From positions 1 through 40,306 of the forward strand of contig JBBSCI010000003.1 in the NCBI GenBank assembly GCA_038250445.1: a stretch of DNA of 40,306 bases, in the 5' to 3' direction. The translations under genes and the position numbers were made by a program. The stretch is from Candidatus Limnocylindrales bacterium (GTDB lineage Bacteria; Chloroflexota; Limnocylindria; Limnocylindrales; CSP1-4). Below, one piece after another: positions 1-24,111 of the stretch. How positions within the stretch are numbered: position 1 is the stretch's first letter; every line of letters starts with the position of its first letter. The notes beneath the pieces are model-generated. The model was not told where the DNA came from, did no database searches, and saw only the letters and a list, made by a program, of their open reading frames with translations.

Positions 1-219
1 GCCATCCAGCGCGGTCGAGATCTTGACCTTCGTACCGATCTCCAGACCAGCCCGCTCGAGCACATCGAGGTCCGGATCGCGGAAGATCAGCGAGAACGTG
101 TCGGGCATTGCAAGCCGGTCGACGACGAGGGCGCTCTCGAGCTGGCCTTCGACGTCGTCGGGCATCTCGGCACCGCCGATCTCGATCTTACGCTGCAGGG
201 CGGGGCTGTCGACGGCCAT
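1..219 (-). CDS. vgrG: VgrG-related spike hub protein of CIS, N-terminal fragment (runs off left edge)
   Basis: Not in the ORF track. Manual translation from ATG 219: MAVDSPALQRKIEIGGAEMPDDVEGQLESALVVDRLAMPDTFSLIFRDPDLDVLERAGLEIGTKVKIS... The 'VxDxxxxPDxFxLxFRDP' pattern resembles actinobacterial VgrG/late-control-D N-termini, and the gene lies directly after the LysM gene. Confidence 0.8.
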   Translation of the reverse strand, partial: MAVDSPALQRKIEIGGAEMPDDVEGQLESALVVDRLAMPDTFSLIFRDPDLDVLERAGLEIGTKVKISTALDG

Positions 220-228
220 CAATCGGTC

Positions 229-966
229 TCAGGAGCCGCGGGCCGCGTCGGCCACGCTGGGGATCATCAGGACGGTGCCAGGGGCGAGCCGCAATGGATC
301 GTCGATCCCGTTCAGCTCGGCGATGGCTCGCCAGTAGGTCGCTTGGCCGAGTTCGCCGAAGGCGACCGACTGAAGCGTGTCCCCCTCGACGGTCGTGTGC
401 GTCCGCCGGCTGTTCGTCGAATGCGACGTCGGGTTCGTGCCGTCCGCCTTCTCATGCTGACCCTCGAGCGAGATCCCGACGGTCGCCTGGACGGGCGTCC
501 CATCCTTGCGGAACACGGAGTACTTGACATCGACCTTGGTAAGGAATCCCTTGAAGGTCGAAAGCTGCGGGTTTCCGCCCCACTTGAACTGGATCAGCGG
601 CGCACATGCCTTTTTCTTGTCACTTGAGCTCTTCGTCGGTTTCGTCCAGCTGAGCAACGTCGTGATCTTGGGTGTCACGTCGCCCTTGGCCGATGCGTAG
701 TCGTCGAAGAAGAGCGACATCGACAAGGTCATTGGGGAGGCGCCGCCGTACTGAGGCGTGCCCCCGGGGGTCGCGGGTGTGGTGTTGTTGTTGACCACGG
801 CTGACTGACTGATGCTGTACTCAGTCGGGTTGAACATGCACTCGATCTCGAACGGGCCCTTGTCCGGCTTGTTGGGGCCGACGATCACGAGCTTGGCTTT
901 GTCGGGCTTGATGATCCCGAGGGCCTCGCCGATCGCGCTGGCCGCGGACCCAACAGCATCCATCAT
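229..966 (-). CDS. CIS tube-initiator protein with C-terminal LysM domain (Afp7/gpU-gpX-like)
   Basis: IECMFNPTEYS, L-F-F-DD, FKWG and 'HTTVEGDTLQSVAFGELGQATYWRAIAELNGIDDPLRLAPGTVLMIP' (LysM). Start moved to ATG 966 behind a GAGGA RBS that overlaps the upstream stop. Confidence 0.88.
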   Translation of the reverse strand: MMDAVGSAASAIGEALGIIKPDKAKLVIVGPNKPDKGPFEIECMFNPTEYSISQSAVVNNNTTPATPGGTPQYGGASPMTLSMSLFFDDYASAKGDVTPKITTLLSWTKPTKSSSDKKKACAPLIQFKWGGNPQLSTFKGFLTKVDVKYSVFRKDGTPVQATVGISLEGQHEKADGTNPTSHSTNSRRTHTTVEGDTLQSVAFGELGQATYWRAIAELNGIDDPLRLAPGTVLMIPSVADAARGS

Positions 967-973
967 CGCGTCC

Positions 974-1453
974 TCAGAACCCGACCGAGCCGGAGACGGT
1001 GATCGCGCCGGCGAGCGCCCCACCGAGCGCGCCGAAGCCGATGATCTCCTGGTAGATGACCTCGAGCGTCTCGGTCGCGATCGCGTTGCCCATGAGGTCG
1101 AGGGTCGGCCCTGTCCACTTGACGGGGATCACCCCAGCAAGATTCCAGGTCGTGATGTCCTCGGCGGCCGCGTTGAGCGCGGTGATCGCCATGGTCTGCG
1201 GGACCACCTTGATGGCAACGCTCTGGAGCCACATCGAGAGCCACTTCGAGTCGGAGTCGACGGGCCTGCTAAGGCGGAGCTTCGTGTACGTGCACGGGCC
1301 AACGAGCTGGTGCTCGTAGCCGTTGACGCCGCCCTCGCGATATGGCGTCACCTTGTATTCGAAGCCCAGGCCCTCGATCTTTGTAAAGAGCCCGAGCGGA
1401 ATGAAGCCGTCGATCGTGCACTTGTAGACGATGCTCAGCGCGGGGTCGCCCAT
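974..1453 (-). CDS. Second phage tail tube protein (T4 gp19-like, Afp5-like)
   Basis: 'FTKIEGLGFEYKVTPYREGGVNGYEHQLVG...LRLSR' and 'WNL..VIPVKWTGPTLD...IATETLEV' are gp19-type tube motifs. Confidence 0.92.
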   Translation of the reverse strand: MGDPALSIVYKCTIDGFIPLGLFTKIEGLGFEYKVTPYREGGVNGYEHQLVGPCTYTKLRLSRPVDSDSKWLSMWLQSVAIKVVPQTMAITALNAAAEDITTWNLAGVIPVKWTGPTLDLMGNAIATETLEVIYQEIIGFGALGGALAGAITVSGSVGF

Positions 1454-1462
1454 CGATTCTCC

Positions 1463-3451
1463 TCAGGACTGGTCGAACGTGAGGCCCTTGGCCTCGCGCT
1501 CGTAGATGTACTCGTTGCGAAGATGGGTTCGTAGGCGGCCGAAGAGGGACCTCGCGAGCTGGTCGAGCTCATCGTCCGAGTGCTCTGACCCGCCCCTGGT
1601 TTCAGGGGCCGGCGGCGGCGTGTTATCGATCCGCTGGACGACCGGTGTTGCGGTAGGACCGAACACCGGACCCTGGACCATCCCGACCGCCAACGGCGAG
1701 GTCTGGACGCTGGGCGCGGGGACTTCCGAGACGATGGAGCGGGCGATTGACGGCGTGGCGGTCGCCTCCTGCCACGGGGCGGCTTGGGCGGCCGGTACTG
1801 CGGGTCGGACGAGAGTCATTGGGGCAGCTGCGCCTTCGGATCGCCGCGGCGTGCCGGAGGAACCCCACGCAGGGCTCCGGTCTGTTCTGGAAGCAGTTGG
1901 AAAATGAAGGGCTCCGGACGCCTGGCGCTGGACCGCCGGACCGGTGTCTCCACCGACGGTCGGCATCGGACGCTCCCAGCCGCCGGCGAGCGTCCAGATC
2001 GCGCCGCTCGATGCCTCGGGTGACGCCCCGCCGAACGCTGAGGGAGTCGTCTGTGCGCTCGCAGGTGTCGCGGATGCACCGACTGGGGCCGTGGAGGCGC
2101 CGCCGATCGAGGCCTGGCGCTGGACGGCACCGATCGGACCGATCGGCTGGCTGCCGACGAGCGGCCGTCGCTGGGGACGCGGCGCGGGCAATGCCGGGGA
2201 TTCGGTCGTGACTGTGCGCGCCACCGTAACCGCGAGGCGAGCCGAGGCGCCTGAGCCGGCGCCGGTCGGGATCGAGGCGGGCGCGCTCGACGGCACGGCT
2301 GACGTGTTGGCCGGCGATCGCTCCGGGCCATCGGAGGGCGTCGGCGTCGGCCGACCGACGACCGGAAGGACCGGCAGGGTCGGAGTGGGACTCGGAACCG
2401 CCGACAGGGACGGGCGGGCTGGCGCGAGATCGGGCCCATCGGATGAGTCCGCGGTGGCAGGCGCCGGCTCCGCCACGGCGGGTCGCTGCCCGCTGATCCG
2501 GCGCTGGATCGTCGTTCGCAACGGAACGGCCCCGGCCGTCGGGCTCGTGGCGGTCGGGCTGCCGGGGGCGCTGGTCGACGGATGTGAGCCTGCCGGGTCG
2601 CCGACAGTCGGCGTAGTGGCCGCTAGCCGCGCAACCGCGAGCCCGGGAAGGGGACGAGCGTCGGCCAGGACGGCAGTGCTCGGCGCCGTCGGCAGCGGCA
2701 CGCCGAGGCCGGCACGCCGAGCGGCCGGCGGCGGGGTCACTGTTCCAGCTTCGGTCACCGCGGCGGATTCGGCATGGCGACCGGTCGATGTCACGTCCGG
2801 CCGGGGCGACGTCGCCGTGGGCGCAGCCGCCTGGGATGTCTGGACCTGCGTTCGGCGGCCGGCGAGCGGCGCATCGGCGCGACTCGTCGGGCCCGCAGGC
2901 AATTCGGCGTGAGTCAACGAATGCGCGGGCGGGCGGGCGGCCGCGTCCGGCTTCACGACGCCGAGCTGGCGGGCCGGTGGCTCGACGGGAACACTGGCCG
3001 AGGGTGCCATGGTCTGGGGTGCCGGCGCGGGCGTGGGGGCGTCCGCGGCGGCGGTCGGGGCAGGCGACTCGGACATGGCCTCGACGGTCGCCCCATCGGG
3101 CCGGCGCTGGACCGGCGGAGGCACGAGCGCAGCGTTCGAGGTCAGCGACGCAACGGTGTGGACCGGGGCTCCAACGAGCCCCGCCGGAGCGACCCGCGTC
3201 ACGTCGTGGCCGAGTGGCTCGACGATCGGCGGCAGGGGATGGACGCCCGGCACGGCCTCGAAGAACGTCTCCGACGAGGCGACGAGCGGGGCCGCTCCGA
3301 CCGCCCGCTGGATCGGCGGCAGCGTCGCCCAGGCGCCCGTCGACGCGGGGGGTGACGGGGCCGCGGCGGGCACGGGTGCCCCCGACTCAGGTTTCGTGTC
3401 GGCCGGCGCCGCCGTCGAGCGGCCGAACGGCCACGGCAGGCGCACCTTCAC
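1463..3451 (-). CDS. Long Pro/Ala/Thr-rich, largely disordered CIS protein in the tape-measure position
   Basis: 662 aa low-complexity ORF, GTGA-coupled to DUF6760. C-terminal helix 'DELDQLARSLFGRLRTHLRNEYIYEREAKG' resembles the C-terminal motif of actinobacterial CIS proteins in this slot; multiple VQR/IQR motifs. Confidence 0.7.
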   Translation of the reverse strand: MKVRLPWPFGRSTAAPADTKPESGAPVPAAAPSPPASTGAWATLPPIQRAVGAAPLVASSETFFEAVPGVHPLPPIVEPLGHDVTRVAPAGLVGAPVHTVASLTSNAALVPPPVQRRPDGATVEAMSESPAPTAAADAPTPAPAPQTMAPSASVPVEPPARQLGVVKPDAAARPPAHSLTHAELPAGPTSRADAPLAGRRTQVQTSQAAAPTATSPRPDVTSTGRHAESAAVTEAGTVTPPPAARRAGLGVPLPTAPSTAVLADARPLPGLAVARLAATTPTVGDPAGSHPSTSAPGSPTATSPTAGAVPLRTTIQRRISGQRPAVAEPAPATADSSDGPDLAPARPSLSAVPSPTPTLPVLPVVGRPTPTPSDGPERSPANTSAVPSSAPASIPTGAGSGASARLAVTVARTVTTESPALPAPRPQRRPLVGSQPIGPIGAVQRQASIGGASTAPVGASATPASAQTTPSAFGGASPEASSGAIWTLAGGWERPMPTVGGDTGPAVQRQASGALHFPTASRTDRSPAWGSSGTPRRSEGAAAPMTLVRPAVPAAQAAPWQEATATPSIARSIVSEVPAPSVQTSPLAVGMVQGPVFGPTATPVVQRIDNTPPPAPETRGGSEHSDDELDQLARSLFGRLRTHLRNEYIYEREAKGLTFDQS

Positions 3452-3606
3452 GTCTCCTCAGAAATCCGCTTGTTGATCCGGCCGATCTCTTCGACGAATC
3501 GGAGCCGGAGTGGATGCTCGAGGTCGAGGATCGAGTCCATCGGCCAGTGGAAGTGATAGGCGACGTACGCAACTTCTTCGAAGAGACGGTCCGTCGCGTA
3601 CGTCAC
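3448..3606 (-). CDS. DUF6760 family small protein (gpE'/gpT-like tail chaperone C-terminal part)
   Basis: Not in the ORF track. GTG 3606: MTYATDRLFEEVAYVAYHFHWPMDSILDLEHPLRLRFVEEIGRINKRISEET; GTGA overlaps with both neighbours. Confidence 0.85.
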   Translation of the reverse strand: MTYATDRLFEEVAYVAYHFHWPMDSILDLEHPLRLRFVEEIGRINKRISEET

Positions 3607-4034
3607 GATTCCCCCAGGCGCTGCTCACCCGCCACATCCACCGTGAACCCGTGGTTGCAGGCCGGACAGGTCACGGACGCCTGGGTGTGGCCCTCCTGGT
3701 TGATCCGGCGATAGAGGTCCTGGAGGAAGGCGAGGTCGGAGGCGAACAGGCCCTCGATGACGCCGGTGTGGACCTGGCCGAGCGCACCCAGACGGGTGAC
3801 GACGCGGGACAGGAGCAGGACCGTGAGGTACGCCTCGTTTTCCCGAACTCGAGGATCCCGCTGGGGGATGATCTCGTCGCGCGCGGTCGCAAGCCGCATG
3901 ACACCGTCTCGATGGACCACTCCGGTGCCATCGACATAGCCGCGCGGGAGGACGAATGCGTACTCCGTGTGGAGCGCTTCCGCGCCCCCCGCGCTGCTGA
4001 ACTCGAGGGCCTCCGGACGAGTCGCGAGGGTCAT
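3603..4034 (-). CDS. Tail assembly chaperone-like protein with C-terminal CxxC (CPACNH)
   Basis: 'FVLPRGYVD..G.VHRDGVMRLATARDEI...DPRVRENEAYL...LLSRV...LFASDLAFLQDLYRRIN' is the conserved eCIS protein found after the tube gene. Confidence 0.8.
   Translation of the reverse strand: MTLATRPEALEFSSAGGAEALHTEYAFVLPRGYVDGTGVVHRDGVMRLATARDEIIPQRDPRVRENEAYLTVLLLSRVVTRLGALGQVHTGVIEGLFASDLAFLQDLYRRINQEGHTQASVTCPACNHGFTVDVAGEQRLGES
3609..3615 (-). other. Candidate -1 ribosomal frameshift slippery heptamer G-GGG-GAA
   Basis: Minus strand reads CTG GGG GAA TCG TGA; a -1 slip gives GGA ATC GTG ACG TAC, the DUF6760 frame. Confidence 0.6.
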
Positions 4035-4041
4035 GGTCCGC

Positions 4042-4476
4042 TCAGCCCTTGACCAGCGTCTCGCACGACAGCGTGGCTTCTTCGATCTGCACGCCGCTGG
4101 CGGTCGCGCCGCCCTCGGACAGGCTGATCTTCGAGACCATCGCGTTCGTGAAGTTGTAGCGGAGAACTTCTTCGCCGACGGTGTTCATGAGGATCGCCGA
4201 GCCGTTTCGCCGGTCTGGCGTGCCCTGCATGACGGCGGTGTGCCAGTCCCACAGCTCGGTCGCGCCCGTAAGGCCGCGCTTGAGCGTGATCGTCGGCGTC
4301 TTCGGCTTGCCCGGCAATTTCGCGATGTAGATCTTGCCTTGCTCGTTGACGTACGGGTTGTCGACGATCTCGACTTCGCTCGACACGCCGGACACGGACG
4401 TGAAGTTCGCGACGACGCCGAGGCCGTCGATGTCGAGCAGTACGTTTCCTTGGAGCAGGGGATCGGTTGTCGGCAT
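4042..4476 (-). CDS. Major phage tail tube protein (T4 gp19-like, Afp1-like)
   Basis: 'FTSVSGVSSEVEIV...KLPGKPK..TITLKRGLT...LWDW...RRNGS...RYNFTNA'; directly follows the sheath gene. Confidence 0.93.
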   Translation of the reverse strand: MPTTDPLLQGNVLLDIDGLGVVANFTSVSGVSSEVEIVDNPYVNEQGKIYIAKLPGKPKTPTITLKRGLTGATELWDWHTAVMQGTPDRRNGSAILMNTVGEEVLRYNFTNAMVSKISLSEGGATASGVQIEEATLSCETLVKG

Positions 4477-4529
4477 GTGGAACTCCCTTCGACCAGGCGG
4501 TCAGTCAGTTGTATCGACGGCGACCCAGG

Positions 4530-6056
4530 TCACTCTTCGACGGTCGCGCCGCCGGAGAACTGAGCGATACGGAAGACGACGAACTCGGCCGGTTTGACCG
4601 GCGCGATTCCGATATCGACGATGAGCTGGCCCGCGTCACGCGTCTCCGGCGGGTTGTTCTCCGCATCGCACTTGACGAAGAACGCCTGGTCGGGCGTCGC
4701 CCCGAACAACGCACCATCGCGCCAGACGCGAAGCAGGAACGAATTGATCGTTCGCTTGACGCGGCCCCACAGCCGGATGTCATTCGGCTCGAAGACAACC
4801 CATTGGGTGCCCTCGAAGACGGACTCCTCGACGAAGTTGAACAGCCGCCGGACGTTGAGGTAGCGCCAGGCCGGATCGCTTGACAGCGTCCGCGCGCCCC
4901 ATACCCGGATCCCGCGGCCGGGGAATGCCCGGATGCAGTTGATCCCGGACGGGTTGAGCTGGTCGTGCTCGCCCTTGGTCAGGTTGAGCTCGAGCGAGAT
5001 CGCGCCGCGGATCACCTCGTTGGCCGGCGCCTTGTGGACGCCCCGTGTGTCGTCGTTGCGGGCCCAGATGCCGGCGACATGGCCGCTCGGCGGCACGTGT
5101 ACGGCCTGGCCGGCGAGCGGATCGAAGACCTTGACCCATGGCCAGTAGAGCGTCGCGTACTTCGAGTCGTAGCCGGCCTTGTCGACCCGCCATTCTTTGA
5201 TCTGCTGGGCGTTGAGGCCGGGTGGTGCGTCGAGAATCGCGACACGATCACCCATGAGCTCGCAGTGGGCGATCATCGCGAGCTGGACGGCCTGGAGGCC
5301 CTCGAGGTCGATGTTGCCCTGCTGATAGACGGCCATGAGGTCGGGGACGCTGAGCATCGTGACCTCGTCGACGGCTTCGAGCCCGGCGAAGCCCGTCCGA
5401 TCGGCGGAGTTGCCGACGTAGTCGTCCGGGGTGACGCGGACAGGCACGGTCGTCCCGCCGCCGGCGAGGCTGACGCTGCCGGCCGCCGGGACGCGGTCGA
5501 CGGCGCTCGCGCTGCCGACTTCCTCGAGCTGGATGAGCTTCGACTGCGCCTTGACCTGGGTGACGACGTTGTTCTTGCCCTTGTTGGACGTCAGGTTGTC
5601 GAAGGTCTCGACGGGCCGGCCGCCCTGGTTGACGATGATCTTGAACGTGTTCTCGGCGGTCTCCGAGGATGGCGCGACCTCGACGGAGATGTCATTGCCG
5701 CCCGGTCCGGCCTCGATCGCCGACACGCGGTAGGTCGGGCTGTCCTTCTCCTTTGAGCTCGTCAGCTGGCCGGTGGCCGTCGGCATCGCGCCGTCGGCGC
5801 CGATTCGGACGACGTAGGCCGCGCCTCCGCCATTGAGGAAGTAGCCGTAGACGGCGTGGGCGAGGTACGAGCCCTCGATGAAGTCGCCGAACGTCTGGGT
5901 GAACTGGCTCCAGTTCGTAACCAGGGTCGGCGCATTGGCCGGCCCGCGCGCAGCGAGGCCGACGAACGCGGCTACGGCCGTGCCAACGCCCTCGATCGGG
6001 CGAGAACCGGCCTCCACCTCCTCGACATAGACGCCCGGTGATAGGTATTGCGGCAT
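4530..6056 (-). CDS. Contractile tail sheath protein
   Basis: Starts MPQYLSPGVYVEEV; PPSGHVAGIWARND..RGVHKAPANE; GIRVWGARTLS..WRYLNVRRLF; WVVFEPND; IGIAPVKPAEFVVFRI. Confidence 0.97.
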   Translation of the reverse strand: MPQYLSPGVYVEEVEAGSRPIEGVGTAVAAFVGLAARGPANAPTLVTNWSQFTQTFGDFIEGSYLAHAVYGYFLNGGGAAYVVRIGADGAMPTATGQLTSSKEKDSPTYRVSAIEAGPGGNDISVEVAPSSETAENTFKIIVNQGGRPVETFDNLTSNKGKNNVVTQVKAQSKLIQLEEVGSASAVDRVPAAGSVSLAGGGTTVPVRVTPDDYVGNSADRTGFAGLEAVDEVTMLSVPDLMAVYQQGNIDLEGLQAVQLAMIAHCELMGDRVAILDAPPGLNAQQIKEWRVDKAGYDSKYATLYWPWVKVFDPLAGQAVHVPPSGHVAGIWARNDDTRGVHKAPANEVIRGAISLELNLTKGEHDQLNPSGINCIRAFPGRGIRVWGARTLSSDPAWRYLNVRRLFNFVEESVFEGTQWVVFEPNDIRLWGRVKRTINSFLLRVWRDGALFGATPDQAFFVKCDAENNPPETRDAGQLIVDIGIAPVKPAEFVVFRIAQFSGGATVEE

Positions 6057-6124
6057 GCGGGGCCCCTTCACTGCGGAAGACTTCCGGATATGCCGACGCT
6101 CCCACCGCAAGGGTCGCTCCACAA

Positions 6125-6193
6125 GGCCCGACAGGACACCCGGTCGGGCGGCCGTGTTGCACGAAAGGGCGAGCCGACCTGCCCTGACGGCTG
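6125..6193. promoter_or_regulatory. Divergent promoter with phased imperfect TGCCC-N4-GGGCA boxes
   Basis: CACCC-GGTC-GGGCG (6137), TGCAC-GAAA-GGGCG (6158), TGCCC-TGAC-GGCTG (6180) at 21-22 bp spacing; also GGCCC-GACA-GGACA (6125). Confidence 0.5.
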
Positions 6194-6241
6194 CCCCGCG
6201 GCGGCTGGTCGCAGGGCGCCCCCGACCCGACGATCGGTCGG

Positions 6242-6958
6242 ATGATCCACGATGTCGATCAACTCCTGGAGGAGATGGTTCGGCGCGACGCGCTGAACGG
6301 GTCAGCGGTCGAGCTCGACTTCGAAGCGCCGACGAAGGATTGGGTGGCCCGCCGCAGCGGGCCGGCCGTCGACCTGTACCTCTACGACATCCGCGAGGAC
6401 CTGGAGCGGCGGGTGCCCGCCTGGGAGGACGTCAAGGGCGGCGACGGCAAGGTGAAGGACCGCCGCCTGCCGCCACGGCGCTTCCGGCTTGCGTATCTCG
6501 TCACGGCCTGGACCCAGCGGCCGGAGGACGAGCACCGCCTCCTATCGGCGCTCCTCTCCTGCTTCATCAGGAACGCGATGCTGAAGCCGGATGAGCTCAG
6601 CGGCACCCTCGCCGAGGCTGACCTGCCGATCTACATCGACGTCGCCCAGCCGCCATCGCAGGACCGCTCGCTGGCCGACGTCTGGTCGGCCCTGGGCGGC
6701 GAGCTCAAGCCGTCGCTAGATGTCGTCGTGACCGCTCCCATGGTCGTCTCGCGCAGTGCGCCATTCGGGCCTCCGGTCCTGCTCGGGCCGATTCTCGGGC
6801 TCGCCTCGACCGACGGGGCGGAGGAGTCCGTCAGCGGCGGCCGATACGACAAGCGCCCGGCCATGCCCCCGGAGCCACTGCCCGAGGAGACCGTCCCGCC
6901 AGGCGCCGAGGACAAGCCCGGCGTCAAGCTTCGAGTCCGCGGCCTCCGGACCGGATGA
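6242..6958 (+). CDS. DUF4255 / Pvc16-Afp16-like tail terminator (cap) protein
   Basis: 'FEAPTKDW...VDLYLYDIREDL.RR...RLAYLVTAW...EDEHRLLS...WSALGGELKPSLDVVVT'. Confidence 0.92.
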   Translation: MIHDVDQLLEEMVRRDALNGSAVELDFEAPTKDWVARRSGPAVDLYLYDIREDLERRVPAWEDVKGGDGKVKDRRLPPRRFRLAYLVTAWTQRPEDEHRLLSALLSCFIRNAMLKPDELSGTLAEADLPIYIDVAQPPSQDRSLADVWSALGGELKPSLDVVVTAPMVVSRSAPFGPPVLLGPILGLASTDGAEESVSGGRYDKRPAMPPEPLPEETVPPGAEDKPGVKLRVRGLRTG

Positions 6959-9072
6959 GCGCGACGGCGCCGGCCGGGACCGAGCGGACGGAGCCAACCC
7001 CGGCGGAACCGTCCCTCAGCCATCTCTTTGCCCGGCTCGAGATCGTCGAGGCCCGCGTCCGTGCCGCGGTCGAGCGGCGGCGGGCGGACGACCCGGACCC
7101 GAACGACCGTTATCGAGGCCTCTACATCTCCGACGCCCAGGTCGACGGTCTGCTCGCCGGTGGAACGGGGCAGTGGGTGCCGGAACCCGTCGGGGAAGAA
7201 GCGTCGCGGTCGCTGGTGCGGCTCGAGGACGCGGCGGACGCCGCCGAGGCCGCCGGCGCCGATCTGCGCCTTCGCCGTCTGGCCCGCGCGTTCGCTCTCG
7301 ACGACTACGACGTCGAACTGCTGCTGATCGCCCTCGCCCCGGATCTCGATCCGAGGTTCGAGCGGCTGTACGGCTATCTCCATGACGACGTCTCGCGTCG
7401 CCGAGCAAGCGCCGGCCTCGCGCTCGAGCTGTGCGGTACCGGATCGAGCCCGGGCGCGAGTCGCGGCCGCGTCCGTCTCGGCACGCGGGGCCCGCTCGTC
7501 GCCGGCGGCCTCCTGATCGTCGAGGACGCGGACCGTCCGTTCCTGACCCGCTCGCTGCGCGTCCCCGACCGGGTCGCCGCCCACCTGCTCGGGGACGACA
7601 CCGCGGATGCCGCAGTCCAGCCGCTGCTCGTCGACTCGGTCGCATCCGAAATCGGCGACGTCGAGATGCTCGCCCGGGCGATCGACGCAGCGGTTCCGCT
7701 CGTCTACATCCGCGAACGTTCCGGCGCGTCCGGCCACTCGCTCGCTCGCGCCGCGCTTGCCCGTCTCGGGCGACCGGCGGTCGAGCTCGATCTCGGCCGA
7801 CTCGGGCCGTCCGACGATCCCAGGGCGATCGCCGAGGCATCGTCGCGCGAGGCAGGTCTCCTGGGCGCGGGCCTCATCGTCGGCCCGATCGAGGTCCTCG
7901 TCGAGCGTGGCGCCGGGGCGGTTCGAGCCTTCGCCGAATCACGGCCCGGTACGGTGCTCGTCGGAAACCGGGCGTGGGACCCGAACTGGTCGCTCGAGCC
8001 GCCCCTCCTCCTCGACGCTCCCGTCGCGACCGTCGGCCAGCGCCACGAGCTGTGGCTTGCCTCACTGGGGGAGGGACCGGAGGTCGGGTTCGATCCGGCG
8101 ATCGTTACCGTCGCTTTCCGCCTGGCGCCCGAACAGATCAAGCGGGCGGCCCAGGCTGCCCATCGGGCCTCGATCGCGGCCCGGCGGCAGATGACGGTCG
8201 AGGACATCTCCGCCGGAGCCCGCGCCCAGAACGCGGCGGGCCTCGAGCGCCTCGCCCGGCGGATCGAGCCCGTCGTGGGTTGGGCGGATCTCGTTCTGCC
8301 GCCGGTCGTCGAGGGCCAGCTAAGGGAGCTGACGGCCCGTGCCCGCCACCGCGAGAAGGTGGTCGGCGAGTGGGGGATGGGCCACCGCAGCCCGCGAGCC
8401 CTCGGCATCACAGGCCTGTTCGCCGGCGACTCCGGCACCGGCAAGACGATGTCCGCCGAGGTCGTCGCCCGCGACCTCGACTTCGACCTGTACGTGATCG
8501 ACCTCTCGACGGTCGTCGACAAGTACATCGGCGAGACCGAGAAGAACCTCGATCGGATCTTCACCGAGGCGGACCGGGTCAACGGCGTCCTGCTGTTCGA
8601 CGAGGCCGACGCCCTGTTCGGCAAGCGGTCGGAGGTCAAGGACGCCCGCGACCGGTATGCCAACGTGGAGGTGGCGTATCTCCTCCAGCGCATGGAGTCG
8701 TTCGACGGCGTCGCGATCCTCACGACCAACCTCCGGACGAACGTCGACGACGCGTTCACGCGCCGGCTCGACGCGATCGTCGACTTCCCGATGCCCGAGG
8801 AGGACGATCGCAGGCGCCTGTGGGAGGCGAACCTGCCGCCGTCGGTGCCGCGCGAGGACGGGATCGATCTCGAGTTCCTCGCCCGTCGGTTCAAGGTCTC
8901 CGGCGGCAACATCCGCAACATCTGTGTCACGGCGGCCTACCTGGCGGCGGCGGACGGTCGCCTGGTCTCCATGCCGGACCTGATCCGGGCGACGGAGCGG
9001 GAGTATCGGAAGCTCGGTCGCCTGACGGTCGAGGCCGAGTTCGGCGAGTACTTCGACCTCGTCGCGAGCTGA
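6955..9072 (+). CDS. CIS-associated AAA+ ATPase (Afp15/Pvc15-like)
   Basis: Walker A GDSGTGKT, 'VVDKYIGETEKNL', Walker B LLFDEAD, 'LFGKRSEVKDARDRYANVEVAYLLQRME'; N-terminal 'LAPDLDPRFERLYGYLHDD'; ATGA-coupled to DUF4255. Confidence 0.95.
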   Translation: MSATAPAGTERTEPTPAEPSLSHLFARLEIVEARVRAAVERRRADDPDPNDRYRGLYISDAQVDGLLAGGTGQWVPEPVGEEASRSLVRLEDAADAAEAAGADLRLRRLARAFALDDYDVELLLIALAPDLDPRFERLYGYLHDDVSRRRASAGLALELCGTGSSPGASRGRVRLGTRGPLVAGGLLIVEDADRPFLTRSLRVPDRVAAHLLGDDTADAAVQPLLVDSVASEIGDVEMLARAIDAAVPLVYIRERSGASGHSLARAALARLGRPAVELDLGRLGPSDDPRAIAEASSREAGLLGAGLIVGPIEVLVERGAGAVRAFAESRPGTVLVGNRAWDPNWSLEPPLLLDAPVATVGQRHELWLASLGEGPEVGFDPAIVTVAFRLAPEQIKRAAQAAHRASIAARRQMTVEDISAGARAQNAAGLERLARRIEPVVGWADLVLPPVVEGQLRELTARARHREKVVGEWGMGHRSPRALGITGLFAGDSGTGKTMSAEVVARDLDFDLYVIDLSTVVDKYIGETEKNLDRIFTEADRVNGVLLFDEADALFGKRSEVKDARDRYANVEVAYLLQRMESFDGVAILTTNLRTNVDDAFTRRLDAIVDFPMPEEDDRRRLWEANLPPSVPREDGIDLEFLARRFKVSGGNIRNICVTAAYLAAADGRLVSMPDLIRATEREYRKLGRLTVEAEFGEYFDLVAS

Positions 9073-9100
9073 GCGGGCCGCCACCGGGTCGGCCGAGGGG

Positions 9101-9114
9101 TGCCCAATTGGGCA
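9101..9114. promoter_or_regulatory. Perfect 14-bp palindrome TGCCCAATTGGGCA upstream of DUF4157 gene
   Basis: Exact inverted repeat in the 125-bp intergenic gap; related boxes at 6137-6193 and 12467-12501. Confidence 0.6.
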
Positions 9115-17004: not shown

Positions 17005-17083
17005 GAGGCGTAGTCGAGACGAGGCGAGCGTATCGTCCCGGCGAATCGCGGGCCATCGTGGACCGCTGGACCGAGGGAGCTCC

Positions 17084-17977
17084 GTGAGCGCGATCGGCGC
17101 CTGGCTCGCCAAGTTCTTCGCCGCGACCGGTGGTGCCCCGGTGGCCGGTGCGTTGGTCGTCGCCGGCGTCGTCGTGGGCAGCCTGCTCGGGGCCGGAGCC
17201 GGTGGGGTGTTCAATCAGAATGCGCCGATCCCCGGCGCCCTCCAGATCTATCCGTGCCCGAAGGACGGTCCGGCGCTCACCCAGGTCCCGCCCGGCCAGG
17301 AGATGCTCGTGACGGGGCGGAGCGCCGACGGCGCCTGGCTGCGGATCCACTTCCCGAGCCCGGGTCGGAACGAGGCGTGGGTGTCCGCAGCCGCGATCCG
17401 CCTCGTCAAATCGATCGACACCCTGCCGGTCGCCGACTGTCAGCCGGAGGTAGCCCAGCTGATCCAGGGCTCGCCCGGGGCGACGCTCACGATCGTCGGA
17501 AGCTTCGAGCCGACGCCATCGCCAACCCCGTCCCCGACGCCTCCCCCGACGCCCAAGCCGACGCCAAAGCCAACACCGCGCCCGACTCCGCGGCCAACGC
17601 CTCGCCCAACGCCTCGGCCGACGCCGGTCGACACGACCCCACCGACGGTCGCAAACCTGACGCCGACTCCGGCAAAGATCACGACGGACCAGGCTTGTGC
17701 CATCAAGGAAACGGCTACGGTCGTCACGGTCACGGCGAGTGACCCGGAATCCAGGGTCGCATCAGTCCTCCTCACCTGGACCAACGCAGCGACCGGCAGC
17801 TCCGCAGCAAGGGCAATGAAGAAGAACGCCGCTGGGCAGTGGGAGGCCACGATTGACGCCATCAAGGACAAGCTGTCCCCGCCGACGTCGTTCTATTCAA
17901 TCTCGGCCGTGGCAACGAACTTCGCGAAGCTGAAGTCGAAGCCCGCGGCGGCCAGATTCCTGGTCACATGTCAATGA
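17084..17977 (+). CDS. Membrane-anchored SH3-like domain protein with Pro-Thr linker and C-terminal Ig-like domain
   Basis: GTG 17084 with GAGGGAG RBS; N-terminal hydrophobic anchor; 'VPPGQEMLVTGRSADGAWLRIHF....EAWVSA' SH3-like; (PTPK/PTPR)n; 'DTTPPTV...VTVTASDPES.VASVLL.W'. Confidence 0.7.
   Translation: MSAIGAWLAKFFAATGGAPVAGALVVAGVVVGSLLGAGAGGVFNQNAPIPGALQIYPCPKDGPALTQVPPGQEMLVTGRSADGAWLRIHFPSPGRNEAWVSAAAIRLVKSIDTLPVADCQPEVAQLIQGSPGATLTIVGSFEPTPSPTPSPTPPPTPKPTPKPTPRPTPRPTPRPTPRPTPVDTTPPTVANLTPTPAKITTDQACAIKETATVVTVTASDPESRVASVLLTWTNAATGSSAARAMKKNAAGQWEATIDAIKDKLSPPTSFYSISAVATNFAKLKSKPAAARFLVTCQ
17510..17628 (+). repeat. Degenerate 12-bp coding tandem repeat (PTPS/PTPK/PTPR linker)
   Basis: CCGACGCC(N)4-type units encoding PTPSPTPSPTPPPTPKPTPKPTPRPTPRPTPRPTPRPTPV. 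Confidence 0.8.
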
Positions 17978-19857
17978 CGACCCTCGCCGGCATCCTCCCC
18001 AAGCTCGCCGTCTTCCTCGTCGCGACTCTCGTCGGCGGCATCCTGGCCTTCGGCGTGACCTCCGCGCTCAACCGACCGCGGCTGGCCCCGACCGCCGGCA
18101 TCGCGCCCGACTACACGCTCACCTCGGCAGGAACGGTCGCCGCCTTCGACCTGATCGACGCCCAGAAGACGGCGACGGCCGTTTCGGGCCTGCCGGCCGC
18201 CGACCTGGGCGACGCCTCGGCCGCCCTCATCGACGACGAGCCGCCCGCAGGCACGGCCCCCCTCGGCTTCCCGCGGGTCGATCCGGTCAGCCAGTTCGAC
18301 GGCGGCGAGTTCGCGGGAGCGAACTGCACGCTGGCCGCGGGCGCGATGCTGGCTCGTCTCGGTTTCGGCATCGTCACGAGCGGATCGATCCTTCGGACGC
18401 TCCAGTCGGACCAGGTCGGCGGGACCGACATCCACGACCTGCAGCGCGCCGTCTTCCACGGCTACGGCGTCCAGTTCTCGACGGGATCGTTGACCCCGGG
18501 CCATTTGAGGCACCTCCTCGGCGCCGGCTACGGAGCAGTGATCCAGGGCGTGTACGGCCAGATCCCCGAGCAGCTGCGCCTCCAGCCGAGCTTCACCGGC
18601 GGCCACGCGATCTATCTCGACGGCTTCTATCCCGGCAACGGCGACATCCCCGCCGCGTACTACGTCATCGACCCGATTGGTCGCGGCAGCTCGTACCGCG
18701 GCGGGTGGTGGCCGGCGTCGATCGTCGACGCCTTCGGCCTTGCCTTCGGGGGCGGCAATCGGATCCCGGCGGCGTGGGTCTTCCCGCCGGGCGGCGCACC
18801 GCCTCCCATCGTCGTACCGCCGAACGTGCCCCCGCTTCCGCCCGACCCGGGCGACGGATCGTCGGCGAGCCCCGGGTCGTCGTCCGGCCCGAGCCCCAGC
18901 GGCGCCGAGGAACCAGGCACGGTTTCGCCGCCGGAGCCGGAACTCCCGGCCACCATCGACCCCGGGACGATCGGCGGGATCGATCTCGTCCCGTTCCTGA
19001 CGGTCTGCATCGTCAATCCGGCCCTGCCCGAATGCCCGAGCGGCGTCGAGGGCGTCTTCGAGCTGGCTCCACCGATCTTCACGCTGTCGCTCGGACCGGC
19101 GATCAACGTCCGATTCGTTGATTCCGACAGACCGAATGTCGCCCTCATCGGATTCACCGTCGCGAGTCCGGCTCCCGTCGATGTGAAGTTCTGGGAGGCC
19201 GATGGCACGCCTGCGACGGTCCTTGGGCCGACGTCGATGGCGAGCAGGACCGTGGGCGGCGACCCGATGATCGTGGCCGAGCTGCATGTCGTTGCCGCCA
19301 CGAAGTATCACTACCAGGTCGTCGCGGGCGATGGGGCGTTTACCTCGGTCAGCCCGGTCGGGACGTTCACGACCGGCTATGGCGTGCAGCTCTTCGAGGC
19401 GGCTCTCGCAACGGCGACGAGCCCGGTGCTTACCCTCGAGTCGGCACTGTCACCGTTCCTCCACCAGGCCGATGGAGCGCTCGCGCCTCCGCTCCTCCCG
19501 TTGATCGGCGGTGAACGGCCGGCCGCATGCAGCGGCCGCATCCTCGGCTTCGGCACCGAGTCCTACTGCCTCGCGGACATCGGGGCTGTCCAAGCGACGT
19601 GCAACACGGTGAACGTGAGCTATGACCTCGAGGGGGTCGGCGGGAGCGGCGTCCTGATCCGTGCCTTCCCGACGATCACCGGAGCGTCCAGGGACGGATC
19701 GCCGACGCTGACCGGCATCCTCGAGGCCGGCGGACCGCCGGGCTCAGGCGAGGTCGCGATCGGCTGCGTGGCCTCCGGACTGACCTACTCGATCGTCATC
19801 GACGCGCTCGGTGACGCGGACGGCATTCTCGCCGCCCAGACAGTCGTTGTGCCGTAG
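17974..19857 (+). CDS. Membrane-anchored papain-fold (C39-like) cysteine peptidase with C-terminal beta-sandwich domains
   Basis: ATGA overlap at 17974; N-terminal TM; Q...NCTLAAGAM (Gln/Cys), GGHAIYLDG (His), YYVIDP (Asp); Pro-rich linker; Fn3-like 'TKYHYQVVA'. Confidence 0.7.
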   Translation: MTTLAGILPKLAVFLVATLVGGILAFGVTSALNRPRLAPTAGIAPDYTLTSAGTVAAFDLIDAQKTATAVSGLPAADLGDASAALIDDEPPAGTAPLGFPRVDPVSQFDGGEFAGANCTLAAGAMLARLGFGIVTSGSILRTLQSDQVGGTDIHDLQRAVFHGYGVQFSTGSLTPGHLRHLLGAGYGAVIQGVYGQIPEQLRLQPSFTGGHAIYLDGFYPGNGDIPAAYYVIDPIGRGSSYRGGWWPASIVDAFGLAFGGGNRIPAAWVFPPGGAPPPIVVPPNVPPLPPDPGDGSSASPGSSSGPSPSGAEEPGTVSPPEPELPATIDPGTIGGIDLVPFLTVCIVNPALPECPSGVEGVFELAPPIFTLSLGPAINVRFVDSDRPNVALIGFTVASPAPVDVKFWEADGTPATVLGPTSMASRTVGGDPMIVAELHVVAATKYHYQVVAGDGAFTSVSPVGTFTTGYGVQLFEAALATATSPVLTLESALSPFLHQADGALAPPLLPLIGGERPAACSGRILGFGTESYCLADIGAVQATCNTVNVSYDLEGVGGSGVLIRAFPTITGASRDGSPTLTGILEAGGPPGSGEVAIGCVASGLTYSIVIDALGDADGILAAQTVVVP

Positions 19858-23956: not shown

Positions 23957-24111
23957 CCTCGTTCGAGGATAGCCGGGCCCGCCCTGCTGCACGGCCAGCG
24001 CCCGTGTAGTAGAGCCGGATTCCGTGGCGGAAACAGAGACAAATGTGCGACGCGCCCGGAGTAGCATTCGTGGCCGGTCAGCCAGTCGGTCTCGGAGGGA
24101 GGGTCGCGGCA

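Follow-up and report, generated by a model that had tools for sequence, protein, structure and literature searches.

A Streptomyces-type contractile injection system with multiplied membrane-protein genes in an uncultured Candidatus Limnocylindria bacterium

The organization of a contractile injection system (CIS) locus was analyzed in a 40,306-nucleotide stretch of DNA from a Candidatus Limnocylindrales bacterium, an uncultured soil or sediment member of the Chloroflexota. This stretch (hereafter the window; GCA_038250445.1, contig JBBSCI010000003.1, positions 1 to 40,306) is one whole contig of a genome bin of 3.09 Mb, 260 contigs and 80% completeness, and its position 1 is a contig end. The CIS genes lie at 1-19857; the system resembles that of Streptomyces and is accompanied by an unusually large set of genes for putative envelope proteins. 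A reading made from the sequence alone had listed here a sheath, two tubes, a LysM initiator, the start of a VgrG, a DUF4255 protein, an AAA ATPase, a DUF4157 protein, a candidate effector, a LuxR regulator and five envelope genes. All of these were found by Pfam searches, translation and hydropathy, and two genes which had been left unnamed (3603-4034 and 1463-3451) lie between the tubes.

Gene content of the locus

The G+C content of about 65-73% produces many false frames in raw lists of open reading frames (ORFs), and genes in the window were therefore chosen by third-position G+C and family matches. For comparison, relatives of the ATPase were collected at 70 loci. The nearest, at 92-97% identity, belong to metagenome-assembled genomes (MAGs) of uncultured Chloroflexia or Candidatus Limnocylindrales, and a few at 59-64% are labelled Actinomycetota or Acidimicrobiia.

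The structural genes are on the minus strand. The contractile sheath (Cis2 type; PF04984 Phage_sheath_1, 88.6 bits; PF17482 sheath_1C, 66.7 bits) is encoded at 4530-6056; the longest ORF extends to 6122, and the true start is likely M23, at 6056, where the alignment to the Streptomyces sheath begins. It is followed by the main inner tube (Cis1a type, 4042-4476; PF06841, 78 bits), a conserved 143-amino-acid (aa) protein (3603-4034), a 662-aa protein in tape-measure position (1463-3451), a second gp19-type tube protein of the Cis1b/Cis5 inner tube adaptor type (974-1453; PF06841, 84.3 bits; NCBIfam CIS5_fam, E 7e-16, below the model cut-off), and a Cis7-type tube initiator with a C-terminal LysM (229-1023; PF19266 CIS_tube, 88.8 bits; LysM, 23.1 bits), whose start codon is uncertain and whose ORF overlaps the upstream gene by 50 nt. 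The last gene, recognized by its translation, encodes the N-terminal 73 aa of the VgrG/Cis8 spike (1-219); it runs off the end of the contig, and its remainder is on another contig of the same genome, C202. As judged from this arrangement, sheath, tube, chaperone-like protein, tape-measure-position protein, tube adaptor, LysM initiator and spike form one operon, which continues on C202 with PAAR, gp25, Cis11 and Cis12.

Contig C202 (4658 bp) was located by a Baseplate_J profile search of the genome. It opens inside the Phage_GPD + Phage_base_V spike gene; PAAR, gp25 and a 648-aa baseplate J follow, and the contig ends within Tail_P2_I, after 122 residues. All are above the Pfam cut-off (5 ORFs). 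The left end of the window had zero end overlap with other contigs using 21-51-mers, so that the junction between the window and C202 is placed by synteny: the two VgrG pieces abut in relatives, for example L016, and left of the VgrG start the same baseplate order is found in relatives whose flank extends that far (baseplate J and gp25 in 54 of the 70 loci). A leftward extension had been proposed in the sequence-only reading as a way to recover PAAR, gp25 and baseplate J. All three are on C202 as open frames, cut by contig ends alone, so the baseplate is neither missing nor pseudogenised. A second Baseplate_J match, on contig C37, lies among housekeeping genes, was unconfirmed by Pfam for that ORF and was discarded as false.

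The two genes between the tubes deserve a separate description. The 143-aa protein, a candidate tail assembly chaperone, is among the most conserved of the locus (matched in 59 of the 70 loci at 68-98% identity, except for 56-57% in the divergent L049, L050 and L052). It has a weak match to PHROG 508 'tail assembly chaperone' (E 4.8e-4) and no sequence match in Pfam, NCBIfam or the PDB. The 662-aa protein, rich in Ala, Pro, Ser, Thr and Gly, has no family in Pfam, NCBIfam or PHROGs; [LIVM]QR occurs in it six times, and its C-terminal helix is conserved. In 53 loci, the gene in this position fills a gap of 1.93-2.63 kb between its two neighbours, and the products, of ~590-800 aa and ~60-65% Ala/Pro/Ser/Thr/Gly, have [LIVM]QR at several places, with a distance of often 65-67 residues from the first to the second. 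The helix ELDELAxxLFGRIRxxLRxExIxEREAKGLTFD, or a variant of it, ends the protein in 43 of these 53 loci. In the other 10 a wrong or frameshifted frame was probably chosen; many relatives may be error-prone long-read assemblies. Since the length is constant while the sequence is free, the gene suggests a length ruler, and the 662-aa protein is thus a candidate length ruler or lumen protein.

Divergently from the sheath operon, and separated from it by an intergenic region at 6057-6241 (delimited by gene coordinates and sequence), lies a plus-strand arm. It begins with a Cis16-type cap or tail terminator (DUF4255, Pvc16_N; 6242-6958; PF14065, 137.6 bits) and a Cis15/Afp15-type AAA+ ATPase with an N-terminal winged-helix domain (6955-9072; PF22977, 99.8 bits; PF00004, 82.8 bits). 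A small DUF4157 (eCIS_core) protein follows (9198-9911; PF13699, 115 bits), a candidate cargo adaptor of the Sle2 kind; with the start set at 9198 it is 237 aa long, its homologues being of 210-265 aa with the domain at the same place. The next gene (9932-11461) encodes a candidate cargo of 509 aa, with a disordered N-terminus, two annexin repeats (~129-291; PF00191, 91.4 bits) and a C-terminal HESTH zincin-like domain. From their layout, cap, ATPase, small DUF4157 protein and a variable cargo gene form a divergent operon. On the minus strand at 11713-12360, a LuxR/GerE-family regulator (PF00196, 51.7 bits) has an N-terminal receiver-like region; it was matched in 52 of the 70 loci at 55-98% identity.

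To the right of LuxR, on the plus strand, come the five envelope genes. The first (12570-13826) encodes a bitopic PapD-like protein (Cep192_D3, 33.7 bits), and the second (13829-15976) a secreted PD40 beta-propeller with C-terminal Ig-like (ASH / choice-of-anchor D) domains and a signal-peptide-like N-terminus (PD40, 51 bits; choice_anch_D, E 6.5e-11). The third (15982-17004) is a bitopic Zn-ribbon/discoidin protein with two cytoplasmic zinc ribbons, a transmembrane segment (TM) and an extracytoplasmic NADase-type discoidin glycan-binding domain (DZR, 45.7 bits; NADase_transloc, 39.7 bits; NF047619, 85.1 bits for a cut-off of 38). The fourth (17084-17977) is signal-anchored, with a TM by hydropathy, a Pro/Thr-rich linker and a C-terminal region; its match to SH3_3 is weak (E 1.6e-4 to 1.4e-3) and does not reach the cut-off. 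The fifth (17968-19857) is a signal-anchored 629-aa protein of a family without annotation, predicted to consist of an alpha/beta domain and two FN3-like beta-sandwiches. The five genes abut or overlap, and they therefore probably form one operon.

The far end of the locus was reconstructed with the closest complete relative, which has 97% sheath identity and a contig of 1.49 Mb. After Cis12 (189 aa), this relative has a 748-aa Zn-ribbon/NADase-type discoidin protein, a BTAD/SARP-type regulator, a Zn-ribbon/PD40 protein, a second PapD-like protein and then pyruvate phosphate dikinase (PPDK). The matching pieces in the genome studied here are contigs C164 and C65, which were ordered by synteny. 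C164 (L088 1371-4463, minus strand) carries an intact 1030-aa AAA_22 + Trans_reg_C + BTAD regulator of the large SARP/AfsR type, a second regulator besides LuxR located at the far end of the island. The whole island is ~32 kb, from PPDK to NDH-2, and 1-19857 of the window is the larger part of it. The sequence-only reading had described an expanded envelope module. The module is larger than was thought: with the three further genes at the other end (Zn-ribbon/discoidin, Zn-ribbon/PD40 and second PapD-like) it reaches at least 8 genes.

Assignment to the Streptomyces type

The markers of the CIS superfamily are all present: sheath, gp19 tube (twice), a baseplate set on the window and C202, DUF4255, an Afp15-type ATPase and DUF4157. 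The claim that the locus is a CIS rather than a prophage or a canonical type VI secretion system (T6SS) held on these markers and on the sheath, which is a single chain with Phage_sheath_1/1C and not the two-subunit TssB/TssC form. No TssJLM-like or other known anchoring complex turned up, TssJLM and ClpV not having been searched by name.

A decayed prophage or an R-type tailocin would account for the sheath, gp19 tube, gp25, baseplate J and P2_I families, which are common to contractile phages. Against this stand the DUF4255 cap, the Afp15-type ATPase and DUF4157, together with the absence of family matches to capsid, terminase, portal and integrase among the 34 window ORFs, the 5 ORFs of C202 and the scanned ORFs of the complete relative up to PPDK; lysis families were likewise lacking in the window and in the complete relative. 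The absence of capsid, terminase and integrase genes reported from the sequence alone thus stands for the window. Head or packaging genes to its left, which would have indicated a prophage, were not found either, the locus of the complete relative ending at PPDK. The pyocin sheath scored 52 bits, against 683 for that of the Streptomyces CIS. A phage origin of this kind is extremely improbable.

Comparison with solved structures places the system much more precisely. The sheath matched 8bky/9gtp at 683 bits over residues 23-526, compared with 402 for the next chain, 9ezm, 176 for tCIS, 157-171 for PVC/Afp, 157 for AlgoCIS, 52 for pyocin and 51 for T4. Cis11 matched the S. coelicolor CIS over its full length at 776 bits, with a sole other match of 26 bits. 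Cis16 scored 195 bits to 9gts_0A of the same system against 35 for Afp16, Cis7 115.7 bits to 9gtp_P against 58 for AlgoCIS, and Cis12 of the complete relative (189 aa) 166.5 bits to the 190-aa chain. We take 8BKY and 8BL4 to be entries from the 2023 Streptomyces paper. 9GTP and 9GTS are models of the S. coelicolor system, CIS-Sc (Data availability, PMC12237407). The resemblance to the cytoplasmic CIS of Streptomyces, noticed earlier from the layout, is thereby borne out: the sheath and Cis11 reach 683 and 776 bits to the S. coelicolor proteins, and the named systems compared (tCIS, PVC, Afp, AlgoCIS, pyocin and T4) at most 176, with 402 for the chain 9ezm. The literature assigns CIS-Sc as well as Roseiflexus and other Chloroflexota/Deinococcota CIS to class IId (PMC12998442, PMC10020575), and the class of the present system is assigned by its similarity to CIS-Sc. 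Judged by these alignments, the locus almost certainly encodes a CIS of Streptomyces type (dbeCIS class IId-type). The poorly studied high-GC lineage suspected at the outset is Candidatus Limnocylindria of the Chloroflexota.

CIS-Sc (S. coelicolor SCO4242-4260; class IId; 8BKY, 9GTP, 9GTS) is the closest solved relative for sheath, Cis11, Cis12, Cis16 and Cis7. Both loci have divergent structural and cap/ATPase arms, no recognisable tail fibre, a PapD-like/TM protein and, after the wedge genes, a protein with a Zn-binding stretch, a TM and a carbohydrate-related domain. They differ in phylum and in the membrane proteins, which are multiplied here (at least 8 genes, at both ends) and include a secreted PD40 propeller, a Zn-ribbon/PD40 protein, an SH3-like protein and the unannotated 629-aa family; the outer domain of the CisA-like proteins is here an NADase-type discoidin. 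They also differ in the tape-measure position, which is occupied here by the 662-aa low-complexity gene, whereas the Streptomyces cluster lacks a tape-measure gene according to its authors. Gaisin et al. (2026, PMC12998442) studied the CIS of Roseiflexus and of other Chloroflexota/Deinococcota, which share the phylum and, in their assignment, the IId lineage. Particles are described there as imaged free in the cytoplasm. The study reports no close cisA homologue in Roseiflexus, whereas genes of CisA architecture are found here.

Within the genus as sampled, a sheath (E <= 1e-100) was found in 11 of 43 genomes, this one included, and in none of the 16 genomes of the small-genome sister family; these genomes are incomplete bins and the absences are soft. 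Together with the 70 related loci, these counts show that the Streptomyces-type CIS is common in a widespread uncultured soil group. In some of the genomes of this genus (G003:C67, G015:C4, G020:C72 and G021:C280) there is a second, distant sheath-like gene, at 39-45% identity and with neighbouring partial matches, possibly from prophage tails or a second CIS type.

Cargo slot and its recurrent N-terminal motif

The stretch from the ATPase to LuxR varies from 0.8 to 6.8 kb across 47 loci of the same layout. The small DUF4157 gene is near-constant in it (66 of the 70 loci by tblastn), and the remainder is variable. Its content was examined by Pfam searches of the 98 ORFs called between ATPase and LuxR. 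Annexin was found in 9 ORFs from 7 loci, PG_binding_1 in 5 loci and DUF922 in 6 loci; single cases concerned Peptidase_MA_2, an M14-like match barely above the cut-off (22.6 vs 21.6 bits) and SLH/fn3. Four loci have family-less proteins of 1234-1351 aa, and about a dozen have DUF4157 as their sole called ORF. In L064 (12098-13741), DUF4157 is fused to a C-terminal DUF922 in a protein of 547 aa, DUF922 being a separate slot protein in the five other loci; those of L063, L066 and L085 carry the motif LQxxxGNxA.

This motif is the link between otherwise unrelated slot proteins. In the form [LIVM]Q..GN.A it is carried by 25 of the 98 slot ORFs, which represent unrelated families; of 25 window genes examined, that of the annexin protein alone has it. 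It usually lies 35-90 residues from the start, with VQR after it, and was the sole common element in an alignment of eleven N-termini. The annexin protein of the window has LQRSVGNRA at 56 and VQR at 88 and 127. The presence of a simple N-terminal motif LQRxAGNxA...VQR on otherwise unrelated proteins of the slot suggests a loading signal. MAFFT did not align the tape-measure-position protein on this motif, and its resemblance there (IQRAVGAAP at 47) is by eye only. The small DUF4157 proteins of L029 (16944-17852), L060 (12289-13320), L077 (12154-13002) and L082 (12269-13156) have C-terminal tails with [LIVM]QR motifs, mostly at a 16-18-residue spacing, which suggests tandem repeats of the motif of the cargo N-termini.

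Annexin is a mainly eukaryotic domain which binds calcium and membranes. In the window protein, its PF00191 match (91.4 bits for a cut-off of 25) is in two stretches, and annexin VI is matched at E 1e-34; calcium and membrane binding are predicted from the domain. The C-terminal domain has a sub-threshold match to Aspzincin_M35 (PF14521, 14.9 bits, E 0.036, cut-off 30), and the HESTH is kept in two close homologues. The annexin slot proteins fall into two groups with a common N-terminus and two repeats and with unrelated C-terminal domains: HESTH...NNPDSYSHYAE in the window, L016 and L019, and PHEFGHLxGLxDEYQR in relatives.

Three lines of published work bear on the role of this protein. In S. 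lividans, the small DUF4157 protein Sle2 is reported to bind the tube initiator and the adjacent cargo Sle1 (PMC13277306). AlgoCIS loading is reported to require an N-terminal disordered loading sequence and an AAA+ ATPase (preprint 10.64898/2026.05.27.728243), and annexin domains are reported to accompany eCIS (extracellular CIS) genes and DUF4157 or metalloprotease domains (PMC8213781, PMC3894181). Because it fits the Sle2/Sle1 pair, N-terminal loading in AlgoCIS and the annexin-eCIS reports, the annexin protein is probably a cargo, as its sequence and position suggest. As described for SLP of S. lividans (Nagakubo et al. 2026, PMC13277306), there is a small DUF4157-only protein beside the cargo, an arm divergent from the sheath and variable cargo C-termini; Sle1, however, is given as a coiled-coil, tape-measure-related protein encoded upstream of Sle2, whereas the cargo candidate here is downstream, with annexin and zincin-like domains and the LQRxAGNxA motif. 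AlgoCIS has in common a disordered N-terminal region on its cargos and an Afp15-type ATPase, Alg15, but its DUF4157 is described inside the cargo proteins (preprint 10.64898/2026.05.27.728243); here it is mostly a separate small protein, fused in L064 only. Compared with the eCIS annexins of Geller et al. (2021, PMC8213781) and the annexin-metalloproteases of a survey of bacterial annexins (PMC3894181), the present proteins combine two repeats with either of two unrelated zincin-type C-termini (HESTH; HEFGHLxGLxDEY), in the slot of a class IId system.

Envelope proteins and mode of action

The first envelope protein was modelled with AlphaFold2 from a 36-row alignment (mean predicted local distance difference test score, pLDDT, 86.2). 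The model has two cytoplasmic PapD/ASH-like beta-sandwiches (1-213), a TM with a long helix (219-273) and a small C-terminal beta-sandwich (316-418); by hydropathy, ~215 cytoplasmic residues precede one TM (225-243), with ~175 residues outside. Residues 1-216 matched pilus chaperones and ASH/MSP domains with VIA at Z 9.6-12.8, for example YadV (Z 11.5, root mean square deviation 2.7 over 100 residues), SafB (Z 11.1), the CEP192 ASH domain (Z 10.2) and PapD (Z 9.6). Sco4256 of S. coelicolor is described with a pilus-chaperone-like domain, a TM and a variable C-terminus; it is reported from purified particles, and homologues are reported in class IId regions of Chloroflexi (PMC10020575). On the modelled fold and layout, the PapD-like protein is Sco4256-like in architecture. 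In L048, L050 and L052 (~40-55% ATPase identity), the PapD-like region lies within one-TM proteins of 1056-1216 aa, whose N-termini are FHA-like by eye.

The other Streptomyces factor is CisA (Sco4242), described as a Cys-rich Zn-binding stretch followed by a TM and, at the C-terminus, a carbohydrate-related domain, and encoded just after the wedge genes (PMC10020575, PMC12237407). It is reported as required for firing and predicted to bind Cis11 (PMC12237407). The Zn-ribbon/discoidin proteins, namely that at 15982-17004 and the 748-aa protein located directly after Cis12 in the complete relative (Zn ribbons; NF047619, 39.4 bits), agree in architecture with the description of the CisA family: a cytoplasmic Cys-rich Zn stretch, a TM and an outer C-terminal domain of ~150 aa, after the wedge genes. 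Since the Sco4256 and CisA architectures had already been described for Streptomyces, the module enlarges on a familiar theme and is not of a new kind.

For the 629-aa protein, at least 212 homologues were found. Among the 120 listed, Pfam domains are absent throughout, and all source names that are given read 'hypothetical protein'. Two residues of the family, Cys120 and His213, are invariant. The AlphaFold2 model (mean pLDDT 64.7), searched whole with Foldseek, matched only FN3 tandems, in its C-terminal half. No PDB sequence match was obtained (best E 0.63), a search of 38 members gave no useful Pfam match (Peptidase_C39_2 was sub-threshold in 1 of the 38, E 0.12), and the ESM Atlas gave only leads below 0.9. 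In L023 (18408-21251), a single 948-aa frame joins an N-terminus like that of the SH3 protein to the 629-aa family, either a natural fusion or an assembly frameshift.

The linkage of these genes to the CIS was examined in loci with LuxR downstream of the ATPase and sequence long enough to show the gene concerned. After LuxR, the PapD-like gene was present in 34 of 44 loci, PD40 in 29 of 39 and the Zn-ribbon gene in 22 of 32 (about 70-77%), and same-architecture orthologues lie beside LuxR in MAG loci labelled Actinomycetota. The 629-aa family was found in 8 of the 11 sheath-positive genomes of the genus and in 0 of the 32 sheath-negative ones, and wherever a single contig carries both, its gene is no farther than ~15 kb from the sheath. 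The five genes could be ordinary envelope genes, inherited with the island as neighbours and without a CIS role, which is a question separate from that of the mode of action. PD40, SH3, Ig-like and discoidin domains are indeed common in envelope proteins. But gene order and neighbourhood are preserved in 34 of the 44 loci, across two phylum labels; the 629-aa family keeps to sheath-positive genomes; all three architectures are found again at the far end of the island; and two of them match proteins tied to the CIS in Streptomyces. A mere neighbourhood is therefore improbable, and we consider it quite probable that the envelope genes are functional partners of the CIS.

Several observations weigh against this partnership and the membrane adaptor reading built on it. 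The PapD-like gene is missing after LuxR in 10 of the 44 loci, and the SH3 gene (8 of 24 loci) and the 629-aa gene (7 of 16) are limited to a subclade. In L017 (12959-14226; 92% ATPase identity) and L033 (12923-14034), LuxR is followed almost directly by NDH2, the right-hand module having been lost or never gained with the CIS genes kept; L017 has a 36-residue remnant matching the 629-aa gene. Since these two loci retain their CIS genes, the module is dispensable for CIS gene retention. Moreover, co-occurrence of linked genes can reflect joint inheritance of an island, without a shared function. The agreement of the Zn-ribbon protein with CisA and of the PapD-like protein with Sco4256 is one of architecture and fold class alone; PapD/Ig-like folds are very common, and VIA Z scores of 10-13 are unspecific for beta-sandwiches. 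On the supporting side, a contact with the particle was examined by complex prediction. The PapD-like domain (1-222) and baseplate J scored 0.52 (runs 0.52, 0.52 and 0.51; best of 3 controls, 0.00), graded 'weak support', a value in the band which is 'more often wrong than right unless the guess was likely beforehand'. The partner pLDDT was 85, and runs agreed in at least 95% of contacts. In the calibration of this score, 116 of 157 solved complexes passed the mark, as did 2 of 215 mismatched pairs, and scores of at most 0.60 comprised just 18 of those 157 solved complexes and both passing mismatches.

The explanation we favour as a whole, with slightly better than an even chance, is a fibreless CIS of cytoplasmic type with membrane adaptors. 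Particles would assemble free in the cytoplasm, without fibres, under the control of LuxR and of the large SARP-type regulator at the other end. The annexin/zincin cargo would be loaded into the tube through its disordered N-terminal LQRxAGNxA...VQR signal, aided by the DUF4157 adaptor and the ATPase. The bitopic proteins would contact the baseplate with their small cytoplasmic domains (PapD-like, zinc ribbons) and the cell wall with their outer domains (discoidin, PD40, SH3-like, Cys/His domain). By analogy with CisA and Sco4256, such adaptors would sense the condition of the wall, bring free particles to the membrane of their own cell and trigger firing, probably on envelope stress. The cytoplasmic, self-directed mode of action taken by itself is argued by analogy and falls a little short of an even chance.

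The cargo types are the principal difficulty for this mode: annexin (membranes, calcium) and the peptidoglycan-binding cargo of 5 related loci argue for a target outside the cytoplasm of the producer. Annexin is also among the eukaryote-like eCIS domains listed by Geller et al. (2021, PMC8213781). These points would suit an extracellular CIS, released by lysis and delivering its annexin/zincin cargo into protists, fungi or bacteria, with envelope genes serving release or wall remodelling and with binding by unrecognised fibre-like proteins. The eukaryotic annexin matches, to E 1e-34, and the 629-aa protein, whose invariant Cys/His and sub-threshold Peptidase_C39_2 leads would fit a wall hydrolase, can be read in the same way. 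However, no tail fibre, holin or endolysin family was recognised in the window or in the complete relative, where unannotated ORFs could nevertheless be fibres; every structural protein compared is closest to the fibreless cytoplasmic system of S. coelicolor; and related CIS of Chloroflexota and Deinococcota are reported as imaged inside cells (PMC12998442). An extracellular action is thus unlikely.

The same cargo types would suit a membrane-anchored system firing outward, T6SS-like or tCIS-like, in which the bitopic proteins form a standing envelope-spanning dock and cargo is sent into neighbours across the wall of the producer. At least five bitopic or anchored proteins speak for it, which are encoded at the two ends of the locus and combine small cytoplasmic domains with outer ones that bind wall or glycan; so does the weakly supported complex prediction with baseplate J. 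The lack of a known anchoring complex, within the searches described above, and the two related loci which keep a CIS without the right-hand module speak against it, and we give this possibility a low probability as well. A bolder version, which we hold to be improbable, combines these elements: the bitopic PapD-like, Zn-ribbon/discoidin and Zn-ribbon/PD40 proteins, with the propeller, the SH3-like and the 629-aa proteins, would together span the envelope as a complex for docking the machine and for sensing. Such a complex would have evolved independently, in a Chloroflexota envelope, as the equivalent of the membrane complex of the T6SS, and would couple the state of the wall to firing, the cargo being addressed by LQRxAGNxA...VQR with an echo in the tape-measure-position protein.

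Earlier publications already cover the occurrence of class IId in Chloroflexota, partner proteins of the PapD-like/TM type, CisA, adaptors with DUF4157, annexin domains in cargo and regulators of the GerE/BTAD kind. No paper was found that treats contractile injection in Limnocylindria; the name has 0 occurrences in the Roseiflexus paper (PMC12998442), and the supplement of Vladimirov et al., which concerns Chloroflexi homologues of Sco4256, may already include relatives. What is added here is the number and variety of membrane partners, including genes of CisA architecture in the phylum of Roseiflexus, the unannotated and strictly CIS-linked 629-aa family, the short motif common to unrelated cargo candidates, which makes a candidate loading signal, and the length-conserved low-complexity gene in tape-measure position. 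Among factors by which fibreless CIS of cytoplasmic type find the membrane and fire at it, CisA is, to our knowledge, the only one known. The candidate adaptors of the present lineage form a conserved and more varied set, with folded cytoplasmic domains.

Two features of the window lie outside these subjects. A palindromic repeat between the cargo gene and LuxR (11509-11678) has three copies of TGAACGC-N3-GCGTTC with similar flanks. These copies were considered as LuxR boxes, which was ruled out, since further copies of the element occur throughout the genome, on 10 contigs (23 strand-matches, often grouped in twos or threes). The element thus resembles a dispersed repeat family of the repetitive extragenic palindromic (REP) or miniature inverted-repeat transposable element (MITE) kind, genome-wide and not specific to the locus. 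The region to the right of 19.9 kb contains housekeeping or unrelated genes: NDH-2, tryptophan dioxygenase, alcohol dehydrogenase, a 1966-aa subtilase, a cupredoxin, an M14 peptidase, a major facilitator superfamily (MFS) transporter, a two-component system and UvrD. The 1966-aa protein (24043-29943) is of secreted type, with Peptidase_S8, four CarboxypepD_reg, BACON_2 and Malectin domains, and it also adjoins the locus in L017 (74% identity).

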